A stretch of DNA of 64,000 nucleotides, taken from positions 2,504,488 through 2,568,487 of the forward strand of contig OY760098.2 of the NCBI GenBank assembly GCA_963663065.2. Direction: 5' to 3'. A program made the position numbers and the translations under genes. The first letter of the stretch is position 1; each line of letters opens with the position of its first letter. Positions 2,502 through 45,334 of the stretch are shown piece after piece. Under the pieces are notes generated by a model. The model was not told where the DNA came from. It saw only the letters and a program-made list of their open reading frames with translations, and searched no databases. Source of the stretch: Aggregatilineales bacterium (GTDB lineage Bacteria > Chloroflexota > Anaerolineae > Aggregatilineales > Phototrophicaceae).

Positions 2502-4604
2502 CTATTGAGGAGGAGCCGGGCAACCGCCGTTATGCACCCTTATGTTTCTGACGAACCTCCAAGGCTCAGTATAGGGTGTATTCGTGCAATCGTTGTGCCA
2601 CCATCTGCGATCGTACAGATTCTCATGGCATTTGTCACCAATTACTTCGAATCTGATCTGGGTCTCAACTCCAGTCTGTCTCTTTGTATCACACGGCGTC
2701 GGCTCGGGCGAAGCAGGCGGGGGAGGCGCGGGAGTATTTGTCGGTCTCGGCGTACTCGTCGGATTCGGCTTGGCAGTCGGTTTCTGAGTCGGCGTATTGC
2801 TCGGCGTGAAGGTCGCAGTCGGCGTCGGCGTGTAAGTCGGCGTCGGCGTGGCTGTCGGCAGCACCGTCACCTGCAACTTCGCGCTCACGGGACCTTCCCC
2901 TTCGTAGTTCTTGCCATCACCCAGCGCTTGCACATAGGCATCATAAGTGAGACCGACGGTTATGTTCGTGAGCGCATAAGATGTTATTGACCCATCCAAG
3001 TCAGCTGAGTGATAGTCCCCATTTGGACCATACCAATACAAGTGGTATCTCGCGGCGCCGGTGACCGCGTCCCAAGCGACCGTCGTGCCGGAGACCAGGC
3101 GGAAGTTGCCCGGCGCGCTCAACGGTTTTGGCGCAGGTGTTGGCGTCGGCTTAAGAGTGGGCGTGTTGGTGGGCGTTGGCGTGTTTGTCGGCGTATCGGT
3201 GGGTGTTGGCGTTGGCGTGTTCGTTGGCGTGTCAGTGGGCGTCGGCGTAGGTGTATCCGTTGGCGTCGGCGTAGGTGTATAGGTAGGTGCGAAGGTCGGT
3301 GTATCAGTTGGTGTGTTCGTCGGCGTATCAGTAGGCGTGAAAGTTGGCGTTTTGGTGGGCGTTTTCGTCGGCGTGTCAGTGGGCGTGGGAGTATTCGTCG
3401 GCGTATCTGTCGGCGTTGCAGTGGGCGTGTTGGACGGCGTTGGCGTGAAGGCGGCCGTGACCGTCAATATCGCGCTCCAGGGACCCTCTTCCTCGTATTC
3501 AATGCCATCGCCCAAAGCCTGCACTTCGACAAGGTACTTCAACCCTACCGTCGTGCCCGGGATTTGGAACTGCGTGGTCGATTTGCCGACGGAGTCGTGG
3601 TTCACCTTGCCGCCCTCATGTCTCCAGCGCAAGCGGTAGCCAGTCGCATGGGGCACAGCATCCCAAGCCACCGCGCTGCCCCAAAGATGGCGAAGATTCT
3701 GCGGCTCCGCCAAGTCTTTCAAAGGCGCAGCTGTGACCGTGAATACATCGCTCCAGGGTCCTAACATTTCGTAGATTTTGCCGTCGCCCAGCGCCCGAAC
3801 TTTGAAGAGATACTTCGCGCCGGCCGTCGGGTCCGGGATGTTGTACTGGGTTGGCGATGAGCCAATGTCATGCGTTTCGATCTTGCCGCCTTCGATCTGC
3901 CATTCGACGCGGTAGCCGGTCGCCCCGGTCACAGCCGCCCAAGCGACGGCGCCAGCCCAAAGCTGGTAGAGATTTTGCGGTTTGGCCAGGTCTTTCGGCG
4001 GAAGAGGCGTCGAGGTAGGCGTAGCGGTGGCAGTGTTCGTCGGCGTTGAAGTCGGCGTGTTCGTCGGAGTCGCGGTTGGCGTATTGGATGGCGTTGGCGT
4101 GAATGCTGCCGTTATGGTCACCTTGTCTGACCATTGCCCGTGCGTCTCGTATGAAGTGCCATCGCCCAGCGCTTGGACTTCGACCTCGTAGCTGCGGCCA
4201 ACGTCGAGATCCGGGATCGTGTACTGCGCCGCCGACGCGCTCAAGGTCACGTAGCGACGGCCTCGGTTTGGCGGTCCATAACGCAGCTGATAGCCTGTCG
4301 CGCCATCGACATTGTTCCAGCCAACGGTCGTGCCCCAAAGATGGCGGAAATTGCCAGGCGCGGGCAGATTCTTGGGCGGAGCGGGACTGGCAGTGGCCGC
4401 TGGTGTATTCGTTGGAATGGATGTTGGAATCACTGTTGGGATCGCCGTTGGCGCAGAAGTAGGCGCGGTTGTGGCAGTTGGCGCTGTCGTTGGCGTTGCC
4501 GTAGCTGCCGGTACTCGAATGATCGCTTCGGGCAAGCTCCAGAGGCTGTTCGTGTATGAGCCGAAAGTATCCGCCAGAGCGCGGACTTGCACTGCGTAGG
4601 TCAC
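2502..4604 (-). CDS. Repetitive surface protein: FN3-like repeats joined by Thr/Pro linkers plus a C-terminal 4-Cys module (downstream part of an interrupted gene)
   Basis: 700 aa with no signal peptide of its own. The N-terminus is the second half of an FN3-like repeat. Four complete repeats follow (W..V.GATGY...Y.V.VQALGDG..YE..GPWS), separated by (T/S)P linkers. Confidence 0.75.
3124..3452 (-). repeat. Cryptic hexanucleotide (ACN CCN) repeat encoding the longest Thr-Pro linker
   Basis: The plus strand reads as GGN GTN periodic sequence. It translates on the minus strand to [13 protein letters not shown]... and on the plus strand to spurious GVGV ORFs. Confidence 0.8.
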
Positions 4605-4607
4605 GTT

Positions 4608-4838
4608 TTATGGCAAAGAGCTGAAATCATAGCTTGTCTGCGAAGCCGGCAGGTCTGCGGTCTGGACGTTGCTGCTTGTCGCCCACCAGCGCAGTTGATA
4701 GCCGCCGGCGTTCTCGACGGAATTCCATGATAGGATATCGTTGTTGACTTGGAGACCTGTCGGGCGGTCGAGGCGCTGCTGAGCTTGAGCGAACGAGGCG
4801 GTAAACATAGCGAGGAGAAAGACGAATGTTACACGCAT
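4608..4838 (-). CDS. Signal peptide plus first half of an FN3-like repeat (upstream part of the same interrupted gene)
   Basis: 76 aa: MRVTFVFLLAMFTASFAQA followed by RPTGLQVNNDILSWNSVENAGGYQLRWW...TSYDFSSLP. It ends at TAA 4608-4610, in frame with ORF 2502..4604. Confidence 0.6.
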   Translation of the reverse strand: MRVTFVFLLAMFTASFAQAQQRLDRPTGLQVNNDILSWNSVENAGGYQLRWWATSSNVQTADLPASQTSYDFSSLP

Positions 4839-5082
4839 AGAAGCATTCTAACTAGATAGTCCTTTGGACGCGGCTGTAACTGAAAGACGAATGCAGGCTT
4901 CAAGACAGAGAGTATAGCAATTGATCCAAAACTTCAAGCAGGTTGAGCTTGTGGGATTGCCATTGAAAATACTAGCTTCGGTATCCATTTAGCCGCAACC
5001 ACCTGCTCACGGCTTGCCCTACACGAGCGCCGCGGGATTTGCGATAATGTCGGGCGATTGCACCGGCGAGAATTCCCACAGG

Positions 5083-5778
5083 ATGGCAACCATGATCAAG
5101 CTTTCGGGCAAGCGCGTCTTTATCATCGGCATCTGTTTGGCGTTATTGGTCGCTCTTGTAGGCTGCGGCAGCCTGGAAAAACCAGTCACGCGGCAAGCCG
5201 AAGCGCCGTCGCAAGAAGCCGCGCCTGAACAAGCCAGCGTCGCCCAGCCGACTCAACAGCCCAGCGCCACCCCCACGCAGCTGCCAAGCGCCACGCCAAC
5301 AGACGAACCATCCGCCACGCCCACGGACCTGCCGACCTCAACGCCTGAGCCCACAAACCCGCCAGCCCTCTCGCCCATTGACCGCCTGGTGGCTGTGCGC
5401 AACCCCGAACGGGGCGCGGAGCTATTCGCGCTCTTCCAGGAAGCGGCCGGCAGCGGTTATTCCTGCTCGAATTGCCACCTGGTCGATAGCGAGAAAGCCA
5501 ATCTGGGTCCCGGCTTGCTCAACATCAAAGACCGCGCGCTGACTCGCGTCGATGGCATGAGCGCCGCCGAATACATCTATGAGTCCATCACCGACCCCAT
5601 AGCTTTCCTGGTCGAGGGATTTGATGCCGAACTCATGCCCAAGAACTGGTCGGATATCTACAGCGATCTGGAAATCTTCGACATCGTCGCCTACCTGCTG
5701 ACACTGGAGGGCAGGTCGGATATCGACGATCCCGATCCCATGAACAGCGATGCGGAGGCGGAAGACAGCGAGGGCTAG
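5083..5778 (+). CDS. Monoheme c-type cytochrome, predicted lipoprotein
   Basis: ATG at 5083 gives MATMIKLSGKRVFIIGICLALLVALVGCGS (lipobox-like LVGC). There is one CSNCH heme-binding motif and a Pro/Thr/Ser linker between the anchor and the heme domain. Confidence 0.8.
   Translation: MATMIKLSGKRVFIIGICLALLVALVGCGSLEKPVTRQAEAPSQEAAPEQASVAQPTQQPSATPTQLPSATPTDEPSATPTDLPTSTPEPTNPPALSPIDRLVAVRNPERGAELFALFQEAAGSGYSCSNCHLVDSEKANLGPGLLNIKDRALTRVDGMSAAEYIYESITDPIAFLVEGFDAELMPKNWSDIYSDLEIFDIVAYLLTLEGRSDIDDPDPMNSDAEAEDSEG
5260..5331 (+). repeat. 24-bp tandem repeat x3 inside the cytochrome c linker
   Basis: Encodes PSATPTQL / PSATPTDE / PSATPTDL. Confidence 0.7.
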
Positions 5779-5792
5779 GCGAGCCGCCGCTC

Positions 5793-7280
5793 TCAAGCCA
5801 GCAAATCGCTGACGGCGTCGCCCAGCATTCTATCAGCCCTAGCCAGCTTGGCCCGCGTTTCCTGCAGCCAGGCGCGATCCCCATCCAGAGTTTCGCTTTG
5901 CGCATCCAGCGTCTTGGCTGTGGCCACTGGGGCGGCCCCGCCGGGCAATGTCCGCGCTTCCACGAATGCCCGCGGATCCAGCGCCTGCTTGAACTGCGCT
6001 TCGGGCAAATCCAGGTCCAAGCCCATGCTTTCAGCCGCCACATCCCGCAGCAGCTTCGCGCTAAGGTCTTGCGGAGCCAGGTCATGCTCCTTCGCATAGC
6101 TCACCAGTGCCGAGACGACTCCATGCGCCCGACGGAAGGGCAGGTTGCAATGCCGAACCAGGGAATCCGCCAGTTCGGTCACGGTGGTGAAGCCGGCTCC
6201 TGCCCGCCGCGCCAGACGTTCGACATTGACTTGCAGGGTATCAATGACCGCGGCATAGAGCTGCAAGATGGCGTTCGCCGTTTCCAGCGCGCCGAAAAGC
6301 AGCGGGAAGATCTCGTCTTCGATGTCCTGCGTATCGCCAAAGGGGATGTTGTGGCATTGCAGGCTGATGCCCTGCGCCAGCGCCAGCATGCGGCTGATGC
6401 GCGCCCGCAGATGTTCAAGAACGACCGGATTGCGCTTCTGCGGCATGATCGAGCTGATTTGGATGAAGCTGTCGTCGATGCGGATTGCGCCGCTCTCCTG
6501 AGTCGCCCAAAAGAGCATATCTTTTGTGAAGCGCGACAGGTTGACGCCCAGACTGACACAGAAGCCCGCCACATCCGTCAGATTGTCCGATGCGCCGATG
6601 CTGTCATAAGTGCTGAGCAGGATGCTGTCAAAACCGAGCAGTTCCGCGCTCATTTGGCGATCGATGGGGAAGGCTGTGCCGGTCAAGGCGGCCGCCCCCA
6701 GCGGACTCTGATTGTTGGTATGATAAGCGAATTGAAAACGCTCTGCGTCGCGTTCCAGAGCAGCCAGAATGCCCGCCAGATAGTGTGCCATCGTAGTGGG
6801 CTGGGCGGGCTGGGTATGCGTATAGCCGGGCATCAGGGTATGCAAATGCTCGCGAGCCAGCGCCAGCAAGCTCGTTCTCAGCGCGATCAGATCATCCAGG
6901 GCAGCCAAAATCAGCGGGCGCAGCGCCAGCCGCGTCAGGGCGTAACCCAGGTCATTGCGGCTGCGCGCCAGCTGTAAATTGCCGCCATATTCCGCGCCAG
7001 CCAGTTCGATGAGCCTGCCTTCCATGGCGAAAAAGAGGTCTTCCACGCCTACCTGGCCGCTCAACGCTTCGACGGTCATCGCCTCCACCTCCGCCAGGGC
7101 ATCCAGCAGCGCCTTGGCATTCTCCCGCGTGAGTACCCCGCAGCGCTCCAGCATGACCACATGGGCGCGGTTGGCAGCCAGCATCGGATGGTAGTAATAA
7201 GTCTTGGCATCCTCAAAGAAGGGCTGCAAGACGAATTTGTCATAGAGCGCGTGCGGGAAAGATGGCGACGAGGCGGACAA
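5793..7280 (-). CDS. Fumarate-lyase superfamily enzyme, divergent argininosuccinate lyase-like
   Basis: Motifs SRNDLGYAL, PGYTHTQPAQPTT and ISSIMPQKRNPVVLE match ArgH-type signatures. The N-terminal WGGRF-type motif is absent. Its start lies 3 nt after the upstream permease stop. Confidence 0.8.
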   Translation of the reverse strand: MSASSPSFPHALYDKFVLQPFFEDAKTYYYHPMLAANRAHVVMLERCGVLTRENAKALLDALAEVEAMTVEALSGQVGVEDLFFAMEGRLIELAGAEYGGNLQLARSRNDLGYALTRLALRPLILAALDDLIALRTSLLALAREHLHTLMPGYTHTQPAQPTTMAHYLAGILAALERDAERFQFAYHTNNQSPLGAAALTGTAFPIDRQMSAELLGFDSILLSTYDSIGASDNLTDVAGFCVSLGVNLSRFTKDMLFWATQESGAIRIDDSFIQISSIMPQKRNPVVLEHLRARISRMLALAQGISLQCHNIPFGDTQDIEDEIFPLLFGALETANAILQLYAAVIDTLQVNVERLARRAGAGFTTVTELADSLVRHCNLPFRRAHGVVSALVSYAKEHDLAPQDLSAKLLRDVAAESMGLDLDLPEAQFKQALDPRAFVEARTLPGGAAPVATAKTLDAQSETLDGDRAWLQETRAKLARADRMLGDAVSDLLA

Positions 7281-41791: not shown

Positions 41792-42928
41792 TTATCGCTC
41801 GTCCAAGGGCGCAAACTTGAGGTCCAGCGGTCCGACGTAGTTGGCTTTGGGGCGGATCAGACGCCCGCCCATCTGCGCGATGACATGGGCTGACCAGCCG
41901 GATATCCGCGCCATGGCGAAAAGCGGCGTGAACATATCGATGTCCAAGCCCAGCGTGTAGAGCAAAATGGCGCTGTAATAATCCACATTAGGGTAGAGTT
42001 TGCGCTGCACAAAATACTCGTCCGCCCGGGCGGTCTCGGCCAGCTTGACTGCGATATCCAGCCACTTGGATTGGCCCGAACTGGCTGCCAGAGCCTCGGC
42101 ATGCCGCCGCAGGATAGCCGCGCGCGGATCATTGGATTTGTAGACGCGATGGCCGATGCCCATGATGCGCCGCTTGCCCGATTTTATGTTCTGCTGGAAC
42201 CAGCTTTCGACAGTGTCGACATCGCCGATCTCGATGAACATTTTCATGGCTTCGGAATTGGCGCCGCCATGCGCGGGTCCCTTCAATGCGCCGATGCCCG
42301 CAGTTATCGCGCTGTGCATGTCGGAGCCGGTGGCGGTGACTACGCGGGCCGCGAATGTGCTGGCGTTCATGCCATGTTCGGCAAGCAGAACCAGGTAGAC
42401 GTTCAGGGCGGCGCAGGCGGTGGCGTCCGGCTCATCGCCAGTCATCATATAGATGAAATTCTCCGCCACGCTGAGATCTTCGCGGGGGGCGATCGGCTCC
42501 TGGATTTTGGCGATGCGCATCCAGGCAGCGCAAATCGCAGTCAGCTGGCCCGTCAGTCTGAAGGCTTTGGCTTTGGCCACTTCTTTGTCCGACAAGTTTT
42601 CGGCGTCGGCGTCAAAGGCGGAGAGCATGGACGTTGCGGTGCGCAGGACAGCCATGGCTGGCGTATCCGCGGGCAGGGATTTCATCATGTCGATAACGGG
42701 GCCGGGCAAGGCAGCTCCGCCGGCGACAATGGCGCGCAGCTCTTCGTATTCGGCGCGATTGGGCAGGCGCGTATTAAAGAGCAGAAAGAGGATCTCTTCG
42801 AAGGAGGTCGTTTCCGCCAAATCTTCTATGGGGTAACCCGCGTAGACCAGCTTGCCGATGCCGCCATCAATATAGCTGGTAGTGATATCCGCGACGACCG
42901 CGCCTTCAAGCCCGCCATTGTTAGCCAT
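41792..42928 (-). CDS. gltA: Citrate synthase (or 2-methylcitrate synthase)
   Basis: ATG at 42928 follows a GAGGGGG RBS. Motifs GLEGAVVADT.., HGGAN and GHRVYKSNDPRA are present. Confidence 0.88.
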   Translation of the reverse strand: MANNGGLEGAVVADITTSYIDGGIGKLVYAGYPIEDLAETTSFEEILFLLFNTRLPNRAEYEELRAIVAGGAALPGPVIDMMKSLPADTPAMAVLRTATSMLSAFDADAENLSDKEVAKAKAFRLTGQLTAICAAWMRIAKIQEPIAPREDLSVAENFIYMMTGDEPDATACAALNVYLVLLAEHGMNASTFAARVVTATGSDMHSAITAGIGALKGPAHGGANSEAMKMFIEIGDVDTVESWFQQNIKSGKRRIMGIGHRVYKSNDPRAAILRRHAEALAASSGQSKWLDIAVKLAETARADEYFVQRKLYPNVDYYSAILLYTLGLDIDMFTPLFAMARISGWSAHVIAQMGGRLIRPKANYVGPLDLKFAPLDER

Positions 42929-43089
42929 ATCCGCTTGCCCCCTCGTGATGCCAGCGCTTAGCAATGCGCCAACTCTGCCCACAAAACAACGCGCGCTAGT
43001 ATAGCACTGGGCTGGGCGGGCTTCAAGCTGGATATGTCTGGCATGAGAGCGCGCTTGCCTGCCGCAGAATCTCAGCGAGAAACTTGCGC

Positions 43090-43118
43090 TTGCCAGAATG
43101 GCGACTTTGTGCTACCCT
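43090..43118 (+). promoter_or_regulatory. Sigma70-like promoter of the leader ORF / sulfur-carrier operon
   Basis: TTGCCA (43090-43095), 17-nt spacer, TACCCT (43113-43118). An ATG starts 8 nt after the -10, at 43126. Confidence 0.45.
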
Positions 43119-43125
43119 GTTGCGC

Positions 43126-43221
43126 ATGAATGCTGCCAAACCAAGCTATCGTTTGATGCGGGAAATCTGTTGTTGTCCGGAGGGCGCAAAATACTGCCGC
43201 CGCGGGATTTCGGCTGTCTGA
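43126..43221 (+). CDS. Candidate polycysteine leader peptide (31 aa)
   Basis: Translates as MNAAKPSYRLMREICCCPEGAKYCRRGISAV*. TGT TGT TGT lies at 43168-43176 and TGC at 43195-43197. It sits between the promoter and a terminator hairpin, upstream of a CysO-type operon. Confidence 0.45.
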   Translation: MNAAKPSYRLMREICCCPEGAKYCRRGISAV

Positions 43222-43256
43222 ATCGATTGCATGATTGCATAGAGGAATGAGACGCG

Positions 43257-43281
43257 AGCCAGCCCAAGCGGTTGGCTTTTT
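43257..43281 (+). terminator. Intrinsic terminator-like hairpin in the 5' leader (attenuator candidate)
   Basis: Stem AGCCAGCC / GGTTGGCT (8 bp, one G-T), loop CAAGC, followed by a T5 run. It ends 27 nt before the JAMM gene ATG. No plus-strand gene ends upstream of it. Confidence 0.5.
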
Positions 43282-43308
43282 CATTGAGGCAGGGCGCGAG
43301 GGAATGTT

Positions 43309-43785
43309 ATGAGCAGAATCTATATGAGCGAGGCTCAACAAACGATAATGTTCGAGCAATTGGAAGCCGCCTATCCAAACGAGGGCGCGGGTTTCCTGCT
43401 GGGCCATCTGGTCGAAGGGTATATCGCCGCAACCGACGTCGTTATCGATGAGGTAATCCCTGTCGAGAATACTGCCGAAGAACAGCATAACCGCTTCGTG
43501 GTCACCCCACAGGATTGGGCGCGTTTGGAAGATCTGGCGGACGAGCGCGGTTTGCGGCTGATCGGCTGCTATCATAGCCATCCTGATTCACCTGCTGTGC
43601 CCTCTGATTTTGATCGCGAGCATTCGCTGCCAAACTTTCTCTATGTGATCGTGTCGGTGGAGGCGGGCAAAGCGGGCGAGATGGAAGCATACGAACTGAC
43701 GCGCGAAAGAGTGATGCGCCACGCCTTGAGGGCTTTTGATGAAAGCATGTGGCAAATGATTATGAATATGCCAGCAGTGAAATAG
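43309..43785 (+). CDS. JAMM/MPN+ metalloprotease (Mec/QbsD/HcyD-like)
   Basis: 158 aa. NEGAGFLLG (Glu) and HSHPDSPAVPSDFD (the HxHx7Sx2D JAMM motif). A GAGGGAA RBS lies upstream. Confidence 0.85.
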   Translation: MSRIYMSEAQQTIMFEQLEAAYPNEGAGFLLGHLVEGYIAATDVVIDEVIPVENTAEEQHNRFVVTPQDWARLEDLADERGLRLIGCYHSHPDSPAVPSDFDREHSLPNFLYVIVSVEAGKAGEMEAYELTRERVMRHALRAFDESMWQMIMNMPAVK

Positions 43786-43803
43786 ATACCGGGAGAGAGA
43801 AAT

Positions 43804-44076
43804 ATGGCAAGCATCCGCATACCCACGCCTTTGCGGGCTTTCACCGATGGCGAGGCGAATATCGCTGTCGATGGCGCAACCGTTGGCGACGCGCTGAACA
43901 ATCTGGTCGAGCGGCATCCTGAATTGCGCGACCACCTCTTCAACGCCGACGAATTGCGCAGCTTCGTCAATATCTTCATCGGCGACGAAGATATCCGTTT
44001 CTTGCAGGGTTTGGAAACCGAGATTGCGGGCGAGGACAGCTTGCGCATCATCCCCAGCATCGCCGGCGGAAAATAA
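43804..44076 (+). CDS. MoaD/ThiS-family sulfur carrier, CysO-like, C-terminus ...AGGK
   Basis: 90 aa. SFVNIFIGDEDIRFLQGLETEIAGEDSLRIIPSIAGGK closely resembles the CysO C-terminal region as I recall it. One Lys follows the Gly-Gly. Confidence 0.85.
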   Translation: MASIRIPTPLRAFTDGEANIAVDGATVGDALNNLVERHPELRDHLFNADELRSFVNIFIGDEDIRFLQGLETEIAGEDSLRIIPSIAGGK

Positions 44077-44089
44077 GGGAGCGACGCCA

Positions 44090-45334
44090 ATGTCAACTTT
44101 GCATCCACGACTGGCAGCATTGAGCAAAGACGAGGTCAAGCGCTACAGCCGGCACGTCATCATGCCAGAAGTCGGCATGGAAGGGCAGCGCCGCTTGAAA
44201 GCCTCGTCCGTCTTGCTGATTGGCACGGGCGGTTTGGGCAGTCCGCTCGCTTTGTATCTGGCGGCCGCGGGCATCGGTCGCATTGGCTTGGTGGATTATG
44301 ATGTGGTCGATTTCACCAACTTGCAGCGCCAGGTCATCCATGGTGTCAGCACGGTCGGCCGCTCAAAACTGGATAGCGCCGCGGCGCGCATGCTCGATCT
44401 CAATCCCGATATAACAGTCGTCAAATACAATGAGCCGCTCACATCCGAGAATGCCCTGCGCATATTCAGCGAAGATTGGGATATCGTCATTGATGGCACG
44501 GACAATTTCCCCACGCGCTACCTGGTCAACGACGCCTGCGTCAAGCTGGGCATTCCCAACGTTTACGGCAGCATCTTTCGTTTCGAGGGCCAGCTCAGCG
44601 TCTTCTATGGCGAGCGGGGTCCTTGCTATCGCTGCATGTTCCCGGAGCCGCCGCCGCCTGGTCTGGTGCCAAGCTGCGCGGAAGGCGGGGTTTTGGGCAT
44701 CCTGCCGGGCACCATCGGCACCATGCAAGCCACAGAAGCCATCAAGCTGCTGCTGGGCATCGGCGACCCCATGATCGGGCGCATGATGCTCTATGACGCG
44801 CTGGAGATGAGCTTTCATACCATCAAGATTCGCAAAGATCCCCGCTGCCCGGTCTGCGGCATCGCCAAAGATGACATCACGCTAATCGATTATGAGCAGT
44901 TCTGCGGCATGCCGGCGCATGATCACAGCGAGTTCAGCGCCGTCGAGGACAGCGATGACATGCAGATTAAGACGGTCACCGTGCAGGATGTCAAGTCAGC
45001 GCTGGAGAATGGCGATGATGTGCTGGTCATTGACGTTCGCGATCCGCATGAATGGGATATCAGCGCCATTGAAGGTACGCTGCGCATCCCCAAGCCGGAT
45101 ATTCAGCTGGCGAAGAATGGCATTCAAGCGGGCCGCAAGCTCTGGGAAGAGACCGTGCTCACCGAGATCCCCAAGGACCGGACGCTCTATGTGCATTGCC
45201 GCAGTGGCAAGCGCAGCGCGGACAGCATCGCCTATTTGTCGGAAATCGGCTATGACCTGGACAAGATGTACAATGTCGAGGGTGGCATTCTGGCTTGGGC
45301 GGACGAGATTGACCCAGCGATGGCGAAGTATTAG
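44090..45334 (+). CDS. MoeB/ThiF-type adenylyltransferase fused to a rhodanese domain (MoeZ-like E1)
   Basis: ATG at 44090 follows an AAGGGAG RBS. Motifs: GTGGLGSP nucleotide loop, CYRC...CPVC zinc site, SCAEGGVLG, and C-terminal rhodanese HCRSGKRS. Confidence 0.88.
   Translation: MSTLHPRLAALSKDEVKRYSRHVIMPEVGMEGQRRLKASSVLLIGTGGLGSPLALYLAAAGIGRIGLVDYDVVDFTNLQRQVIHGVSTVGRSKLDSAAARMLDLNPDITVVKYNEPLTSENALRIFSEDWDIVIDGTDNFPTRYLVNDACVKLGIPNVYGSIFRFEGQLSVFYGERGPCYRCMFPEPPPPGLVPSCAEGGVLGILPGTIGTMQATEAIKLLLGIGDPMIGRMMLYDALEMSFHTIKIRKDPRCPVCGIAKDDITLIDYEQFCGMPAHDHSEFSAVEDSDDMQIKTVTVQDVKSALENGDDVLVIDVRDPHEWDISAIEGTLRIPKPDIQLAKNGIQAGRKLWEETVLTEIPKDRTLYVHCRSGKRSADSIAYLSEIGYDLDKMYNVEGGILAWADEIDPAMAKY

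Follow-up and report, generated by a model that had tools for sequence, protein, structure and literature searches.

We analysed a 64,000-nt stretch of contig OY760098.2 (positions 2,504,488 to 2,568,487) from an Aggregatilineales bacterium, hereafter the window, and found a conserved leader in the gap between a divergent citrate synthase gene and an operon that starts with a JAMM/MPN+ metalloprotease gene. As judged from sequence and conservation, this element is likely a cysteine-responsive leader-peptide (ribosome-mediated) transcription attenuator, which would sense charged tRNA-Cys and control the JAMM/sulfur-carrier/MoeZ-like operon. The elements of such an attenuator are present in the window, and their order, their spacing and the Cys codons are conserved across 15 loci; beyond this, we infer a transcription start site, translation of a short open reading frame (sORF), an antiterminator and a response to cysteine. 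The class of mechanism is known, and the element is a presumably independently evolved example, new for the phylum and the operon, not a new mechanism. It would join a leaderless start, as known from mycobacteria, to control by a terminator as in trp, neither of which has been reported for this phylum or operon. The leader is made up of the following features.

43090-43095, + strand: -35 box TTGCCA, read from the sequence
43110-43118, + strand: extended -10 element TGcTACCCT, with the hexamer TACCCT at 43113-43118
43126-43221, + strand: candidate leader sORF of 31 codons, MNAAKPSYRLMREICCCPEGAKYCRRGISAV, read from the sequence and from sORFs at the homologous position in 14 other loci
43168-43176, + strand: putative regulatory Cys codons UGU UGU UGU (codons 15-17), the only peptide columns conserved at 90% or more
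43204-43221, + strand: predicted antiterminator 5' strand (region 2), with GGG at 43204-43206, GGCU at 43212-43215 and GUCU at 43216-43219, including the stop codon; from folds with a masked ribosome
43225-43240, + strand: predicted apical hairpin formed by the tandem GATTGCAT (UGCA/UGCA); from folds, with different hairpin sequences at the same place in other loci
43250-43265, + strand: predicted antiterminator 3' strand (region 3), with AGAC at 43250-43253, AGCC at 43257-43260 and CCC at 43263-43265, overlapping the terminator 5' arm
43256-43281, + strand: intrinsic terminator, stem 43256-43264/43270-43278, loop CAAGC, T5 to 43281; from a terminator scan, folds and the alignment

These features had been partly listed in a preliminary description of the locus, and the coordinates given there for the promoter, the sORF, its run of three Cys codons, the fourth Cys codon, the stop, the hairpin, the T5 tract and the 27-nt gap all proved exact in the sequence. 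The fourth Cys codon (TGC) is at 43195-43197 and the stop codon (TGA) at 43219-43221, and Cys thus takes 4 of the 31 codons. Within the window, six-frame translation of the 64 kb gives 12 Cys-Cys-Cys runs, from which about 0.03 would be expected on the sense strand of the 326-nt gap. This rarity is suggestive and not decisive; the decisive case against chance is conservation in related genomes.

The element was compared across a set of 15 distinct loci, namely the window and 14 others from Aggregatilineales/Phototrophicaceae-type Chloroflexota. The best genome matches of the window JAMM protein belong to this same group (54-70% identical), the JAMM proteins of the 14 further loci are about 54-84% identical, and the usual synteny is rhomboid, citrate synthase, divergent gap, JAMM, ThiS and ThiF-rhodanese. 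A short ORF is found at the same position in 15/15 loci. At least two adjacent Cys codons occur in 12 of them, and C-x-C or mixed clusters with 2-5 Cys in L162, L170 and L172; the clusters take the form CC, CCC, CCCC, CCCCC or C-x-C-x-C. The run lies in the middle of the ORF (codons 11-21). Leader size varies from 12 to 36 aa and the number of Cys from 2 to 6. A check on whether orthologous loci keep a Cys-run sORF while its other codons drift had been proposed, and the 14 further leader peptides, given below, show that they do.

L161: MNSYILSYRVMRRICCRGESD
L169: MLRNEASQAVMRQSCCCRDGD
L171: MLVDAQQAIWQKCCCPCNDDEAYGRVGIEAV
L163: MTLNLQLEVLNQPCCCLSSDEVAPARVGNEVV
L162: MMLSDANLAIKSSDYFCTCIGGMATSRVGNRAK
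L170: MVDLRAIMAIESVRCRCTCSDSREICRVGSCAS
L165: MFATGAIQADCCSCTCTVGTVFCRMGICAD
L167: MNTLRGNVRAIMLCCCCCNGGGARLVITAF
L168: MKTVIASVRAMMLVCCCCGGGCARPGRTAF
L002: MVDRQSFPVASPALSKCACLCCCATATRCLGAYAV
L004: MDFRQSVAAARQAGTPCACLCCCSRATHRLGERAV
L005: ...TSCCCMCLANDAIDRIGSCAV
L001: MKRANCCRSRAF
L172: MNDVNRFPTLNPEAMPCMMCMCMQGCFDSQGGRTRG

When the peptides were aligned, the Cys columns alone reached at least 90% conservation, with the consensus x14-CCC-x7-RxGxxAx. Over the 15 leaders, TGY codons make up 61 of 441 codons in frame and 16 in each of the two other frames, which corresponds to 13.8% in frame compared with 3.6% off-frame and with 0.96% Cys in the window genes. UGU and UGC are swapped between loci, which is a synonymous change. 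The genome has 60% GC, and UGU is its less used Cys codon: in 34 long ORFs of the window, 157 codons specify Cys and 21% of these are UGU. In the leaders, UGU accounts for 39 of the 61 Cys codons (64%). Cys columns that are kept while the rest drifts are, on this comparison, the pattern of regulatory codons and not that of a conserved protein or a chance ORF. When 10 of the leader peptides were looked up among about 15 billion predicted proteins, none was present and the sORFs are therefore unannotated; gene callers overlook such sORFs. In the 64-kb window, there is neither a second unit composed of a -10 box, 6-8 nt, an ATG/GTG sORF and a terminator, nor another promoter-proximal sORF with a Cys run.

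The promoter is conserved in the same manner. In the window, the -35 and -10 boxes are separated by 17 nt, a TG at 43110-43111 makes the -10 an extended one, and 7 nt separate the hexamer from the ATG at 43126. In all 13 related loci with a readable promoter, a TTGnnn box stands 17 nt 5' of the -10 (16 nt in L004), and the complete arrangement of TTGnnn, 17 nt including the TG, TGnTAnnCT, exactly 7 nt and ATG is found in 11 of the 13, the -10-to-ATG distance being 6 nt in L004 and 8 nt in L172. The consensus TRTGnTAnnCT is kept in 10 related loci, and L001 is an exception with a 31-nt 5' untranslated region before the sORF. Since an ATG placed 7 nt past the -10 coincides with the expected transcription start and leaves no space for a Shine-Dalgarno (SD) sequence, leaderless translation is the natural reading. 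The sORF mRNA is probably leaderless, with the start site placed by promoter geometry; the preliminary description had suggested from this geometry that the transcript may start at or beside the start codon, and its conservation in 11 of 13 readable promoters agrees with that view. A 2011 survey predicted leaderless genes in a minority of the Chloroflexi genomes, and put their share at only about 5% (PMC3160421).

Downstream of the sORF, the intrinsic terminator has an 8-bp stem core, AGCCAGCC (43257-43264) and GGTTGGCT (43270-43277), closed by the CAAGC loop, and the terminator scan extended it to 9 pairs (43256-43278). Its T5 ends at 43281, which is 27 nt 5' of the JAMM ATG (43309). No copies of the hairpin occur elsewhere in the 64-kb window, and no + strand gene ends upstream of it among the Pfam-annotated neighbours, a layout that confirms the earlier remark that there is no upstream gene for this terminator to serve. 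Among the loci the hairpin is nearly identical (AGCCAGCC-CAAGC-GGUUGGCU), with variants in L002, L004, L005, L167/168 and L170 and an unrelated terminator sequence in L172. In a 13-sequence alignment (A1), 95% of the terminator cells are paired compared with 31-61% in slid controls, two pairs are altered on both sides in a compensatory manner, and the covariation score was matched by 3 of 500 shuffles. The RNAalifold consensus is the terminator hairpin and nothing else was recovered; the leader as a whole is not unusually stable (fold z-score +0.81). The spacing around the hairpin is also kept: the distance from the stop codon to the terminator 5' arm is 33-34 nt in 11/15 loci, and that from the terminator end to the JAMM ATG is 28-33 nt in 13/15. 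These fixed distances on both sides suggest that ribosome position is coupled to hairpin formation.

The alternative structure was examined in folds of transcripts that end short of the 3' arm of the terminator and in which the nucleotides under the ribosome were masked. When the ribosome was masked on the Cys run, the sORF 3' end folded onto the terminator 5' arm as a long irregular hairpin in 15/15 loci; when it was masked on the stop codon, this pairing was lost where the stop sits 26-34 nt before the arm. The antiterminator stem of the window has a predicted energy of -18.6 kcal/mol. The folds agree with the earlier suggestion of pairing between the last sORF codons and the 5' arm of the terminator, but the register proposed for it (GGCUG with CAGCC), although possible, was not chosen by the folds. 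A likelier register pairs GGCU (43212-43215) with the first AGCC (43257-43260), together with GGG (43204-43206) to CCC (43263-43265) and GUCU (43216-43219) to AGAC (43250-43253). The tandem GATTGCAT noted before at 43225-43240 is present and would form the apical hairpin of this stem. In-register pairing of the antiterminator is found in 73.8% of cells compared with 24-45% when slid, and 14 of 15 antiterminator segments fold better than their own shuffle mean (mean z about -0.95). L172 has a distinct terminator arm, GCGCCACCC, which pairs with its own sORF 3' end, GGGCGGGCG, in the same architecture, and L002 and L004 differ at one antiterminator pair (A-U versus C-G). Pairing of this kind would also explain the conserved peptide motif R-x-G-x-x-A-V and the nucleotides GGCUGUCUGA. 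Taking the results together, we put the chances of this specific antiterminator pairing at about even.

The proposed mechanism would operate as follows. Transcription would start with the A of the start codon (43126) or a neighbouring nucleotide, and the 31-codon leader would be translated from a leaderless mRNA. If Cys-tRNA is plentiful, the ribosome would reach the stop at 43219-43221 and cover the last sORF codons (GGG...GGCUGUCUGA), leaving the 5' arm free, so that the hairpin (43256-43278) with its U-tract could form and transcription would stop before the JAMM gene. If Cys-tRNA is scarce, the ribosome would stall on UGU UGU UGU (43168-43176), about 30 nt 5' of the antiterminator segment. 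The exposed segment would then pair with AGAC, AGCC and CCC (43250-43265), which would tie up the 5' arm of the terminator in both its lower and its upper part, and with the long antiterminator hairpin formed, RNA polymerase would continue into the operon.

Several results weigh against this interpretation. The 15 loci share phylogeny, and the counts given above are not independent. The antiterminator shows no column-wise covariation, its sequences being near-invariant, and dinucleotide shuffles match the energy of the duplex between region 2 and the terminator arm (mean z -0.4). The antiterminator conformer is, at equilibrium, less stable than the terminator conformer by about 7 kcal/mol, and readthrough would therefore need kinetic trapping. 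In two close relatives (L161:1686-1751 and L169:2529-2594), an in-frame stop follows the Cys run by 4-5 codons and lies 63-64 nt before the terminator; with L001, the stops of three loci are 59-64 nt away, so a terminating ribosome cannot mask region 2 there. For these three, pairing of the post-Cys segment with region 2, as in the 1:2 helix of the trp model, would have to be assumed. The leader is absent from one sequence that was recovered twice (L003/L166). The window promoter was not called by a generic sigma-70 scan, because TACCCT agrees with TATAAT at 3/6 positions only and is a weak -10 by E. coli rules. Finally, there is no cysM or metY in the 64-kb window, and the pathway may be that of cysteine, of methionine or of another thiocarboxylate use.

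In the sequence just mentioned (L003:2840-3000 and L166:2819-3000, from a sponge-associated Chloroflexi metagenome-assembled genome), the promoter is kept as TAGGCT followed by 7 nt and ATG. The Cys sORF and the terminator are gone and the gap measures only 182 nt, a naturally occurring deletion of the leader. From the ATG beside the promoter, an ORF with no Cys codons continues out of frame into the JAMM start.

Other explanations share parts of this evidence. The Cys sORF could regulate without competition between terminator and antiterminator, if stalling acted on JAMM translation initiation, Rho access or mRNA stability and the hairpin were a constitutive partial terminator or a stabiliser. 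The absence of covariation in the antiterminator, its lower stability relative to the terminator and the three early-stop loci, which misfit stop-codon masking, are all accommodated by such control, and the sole experimentally dissected poly-Cys leaderless sORF acts translationally (10.1101/834739). We nevertheless consider it unlikely: pairing of the Cys tract with the JAMM SD is absent from the minimum free energy and centroid folds, the rest of the sORF does not pair with that SD in predicted folds either, and a canonical terminator stands 28-33 nt before the JAMM ATG (13/15), with the stop 33-34 nt before the terminator (11/15).

That the sORF encodes a functional Cys-rich micropeptide, which binds metal or sulfur or is a substrate of the sulfur-carrier system, and which is either transcribed together with the operon or set apart from it by the terminator, appears improbable. 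Its conservation in frame, the Cys clusters, the recurrent C-terminal R-x-G-x-x-A-V and the adjoining sulfur-transfer enzymes are compatible with a functional product, but nothing beyond the Cys columns is conserved among peptides of 12-36 aa with 2-6 Cys, the rare codon UGU is favoured, and the L172 leader is a Met/Cys mix that matches its own Met operon. Particularly, L161 and L169 lose the C-terminal motif by their early stops, yet in L161 the downstream GGCUGUCUGA nucleotides are unchanged, which places the constraint there on the RNA and not on the peptide and argues that the motif reflects RNA pairing. A further alternative is a leader RNA that is not translated, either a novel riboswitch or a leader bound by a protein, which would control the terminator and whose ORF would be incidental. 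A 5'-leader terminator is also typical of riboswitches, and conserved nucleotides lie within 43200-43221. For this case we see very little likelihood. A cmscan search of 42000-44500 at E<=10 returned no Rfam leader and only a spurious small nucleolar RNA match inside the JAMM gene, so that the check for a known riboswitch asked for earlier came out negative. Between stop and terminator the sequence varies, and no loop or junction is conserved; TGY enrichment is frame-specific and the UGU/UGC changes are synonymous; and the frame from the promoter-adjacent ATG is unbroken in every element-bearing lineage. Attenuation by a translated leader remains our preferred explanation.

The genes that would be controlled, and the divergent neighbour, are as follows; they agree with the assignments made before (citrate synthase, JAMM, ThiS and ThiF plus rhodanese), which Pfam supports.

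43298-43303, + strand: putative SD-like GAGGGA of the JAMM gene, from the sequence
43309-43785, + strand: JAMM/MPN+ metalloprotease gene (Mec/HcyD-like), the first structural gene; Pfam Prok-JAB, 2.2e-21
43804-44076, + strand: ThiS/MoaD-fold sulfur-carrier gene, whose product ends in ...AGGK; Pfam ThiS and translation
44090-45334, + strand: ThiF-type adenylyltransferase with a C-terminal rhodanese domain (MoeZ/MoeB-like), ATG at 44090; Pfam and NCBIfam
41792-42982, - strand: citrate synthase gene, divergent; Pfam

In NCBIfam, the closest models for the third protein are those of MoeB/MoeZ, with scores that mostly miss the equivalog cut-offs; for the carrier they are SAMP1/MoaD, and for the JAMM protein desampylase. 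Because the carrier has a single residue after its Gly-Gly, its C-terminus would have to be trimmed before it could be adenylated, and the JAMM protease encoded alongside is the presumed trimming enzyme. In M. tuberculosis, a set of a JAMM protease, a ThiS-fold carrier and a ThiF/rhodanese protein serves to produce cysteine (Mec-CysO-CysM with MoeZ), and a comparable set in Wolinella produces homocysteine (HcyS-HcyD-HcyF-MetY). The present operon resembles the Mec-CysO-CysM/MoeZ and HcyS-HcyD-HcyF-MetY sets in having a JAMM protease, a ThiS-fold carrier and a ThiF/rhodanese activator, and in a carrier with one residue past GG, which makes JAMM-type trimming plausible; unlike them, it has no CysM or MetY gene, either in the operon or in the window. 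Its cysteine role is suggested by the leader and by relatives. In Chloroflexales and Roseiflexaceae, the JAMM gene lies directly 3' of a gene for a cysM/cysK-like pyridoxal phosphate enzyme, which supports a cysteine-biosynthetic role of this JAMM family in Chloroflexota. The loci with this neighbour are L042, L045, L055, L062 and L063, where it is placed about 300 nt before the JAMM match.

In a more distant relative, L172, genes for homocysteine synthase MetY and for MetX lie 3' of the JAMM gene, both above curated family cut-offs. The sORF of this locus is at 2771-2881, the terminator at about 2908-2940, and the genes at 3001-3429, 3800-5137 and 5247-6416. Its leader alternates Met and Cys codons (MPCMMCMCMQGC) and may represent dual Met/Cys sensing, for which it is a single example; a tblastn search of the related-locus DNA for further MetY/MetX-linked JAMM loci found none besides L172. 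More tentatively, and we think it rather doubtful, Aggregatilineales-type Chloroflexota could run a sulfur-amino-acid 'ribulon' of leaderless leader peptides and terminators in which leader composition is matched to the product, with a pure-Cys leader for the JAMM/CysO-like/MoeZ-like operon and the Met/Cys MPCMMCMCMQGC for JAMM-MetY-MetX. If this were true, it would include the first leader-peptide attenuator that reads Met codons and the first experimentally tractable coupling of leaderless translation to a terminator outside Actinobacteria.

Compared with known attenuators, the element shares with trp, his, leu, thr and ilv of Proteobacteria and ilvB1 of M. tuberculosis (PMC13236596) a leader ORF rich in the regulating codons, a rho-independent terminator before the first structural gene, and a stop codon whose position would let a ribosome that terminates there cover the segment otherwise able to pair with the 5' arm. 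The stop-to-arm distance of 33-34 nt is similar to that of trp, and the antiterminator would need to prevail by kinetics, as it does in trp. In contrast to these classical cases, the regulatory codons here are Cys codons, the mRNA is apparently leaderless and lacks an SD before the leader ORF, the host is a member of Chloroflexota, the genes are JAMM/ThiS-like/MoeZ-like, and the antiterminator lacks column-wise covariation.

The closest precedent for the Cys codons is the set of poly-Cys leaderless sORFs of M. smegmatis (Ms5788A etc.; Canestrari et al. 2020), which are cysteine-responsive (10.1101/834739). The preliminary description had pointed to these as cysteine-responsive attenuators; the poly-Cys leaderless sORF and its response to cysteine stand, but they work by translational masking of an SD, not by a terminator. 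The sORF Ms5788A carries its Cys tract at the 3' end, and this tract pairs with the SD that follows, a translational form of control (10.1101/834739). In addition, Seliverstov et al. (2005) predicted Cys leader peptides in Actinobacteria, explicitly without terminators (PMC1262725). Like the mycobacterial sORFs, the present one is unannotated, probably leaderless and the first cistron, has at least two consecutive Cys codons, and lies 5' of sulfur genes with a likely link to cysteine, and in both cases charging of tRNA-Cys is proposed to be sensed by ribosome pausing. It differs in its mid-ORF Cys run, its conserved intrinsic terminator and its phylum. We assume an origin independent of the mycobacterial sORFs, the peptides being short and unalignable.

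Another related case is the uORFC-8-2 motif 5' of cysS in Rhodobacterales, a predicted element in which Cys codons stand in tandem around positions 14-15 and a terminator follows (Brewer et al. 2021, PMC8632094). Both systems have a tandem-Cys upstream ORF followed by a stem and U-run read as an intrinsic terminator, and both are predicted to use ribosome-mediated attenuation by Cys-tRNA. The uORFC-8-2 motif differs in that it precedes cysS in alpha-proteobacteria, has the Cys codons in the first stem, is not described as leaderless and has no sequence homology to the present leader, whose downstream gene encodes a JAMM protease and whose organism belongs to Chloroflexota. Our literature search found no paper that combines cysO with a sORF.

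To the best of our knowledge, cysteine is the one common amino acid for which classical terminator-based leader-peptide attenuation has not been shown experimentally, the known cases being translational (mycobacteria) or predicted (cysS). The element can serve as a clean and conserved test case, for which nature supplies variants (2-5 Cys in a run, early stops, a deletion and a Met/Cys version). Leader-peptide attenuation and functional translation of leaderless mRNA would gain an example in Chloroflexota, a phylum with hardly any work on regulation at the RNA level, and the element would provide regulatory evidence that the JAMM/ThiS-like/MoeZ-like operon serves the supply of cysteine, or of sulfur amino acids.

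Searches for the element beyond the 15 loci gave the following. A metagenome contig scan with the JAMM protein returned distant homologues only (<=42% identity), which are uninformative on the leader. A scan for Cys-rich sORFs 5' of about 160 distant JAMM loci gave artefacts only, namely alternative frames of the upstream cysM-like gene in Roseiflexaceae and Chloroflexales. A covariance model built from 13 leaders (R1) recovered no new locus except L001 (55 bits), and its weak matches in L055 and L062 were rejected as spurious because they are located in the cysM 3' end and the JAMM 5' end. On three soil metagenome contigs, a Cys-containing short ORF, ...STCRPPCWCRASMMLRYKIR, occurs 240-330 nt 5' of distant JAMM genes (L118:227, L137:2013 and L159:14); possibly this is a second reading frame within a conserved gene that lies upstream.

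On the other side of the divergent gap, the citrate synthase promoter region (42993-43026, - strand) has TTGAAG, 17 nt and TATACT with a TG, and reads GCGCGCTAGTATAGCAC on the plus strand. This region is near-invariant across L001-L004 and L161-L171, whereas the flanking proteins are far more diverged, and it might have a role beyond that of a promoter, such as binding a regulator.

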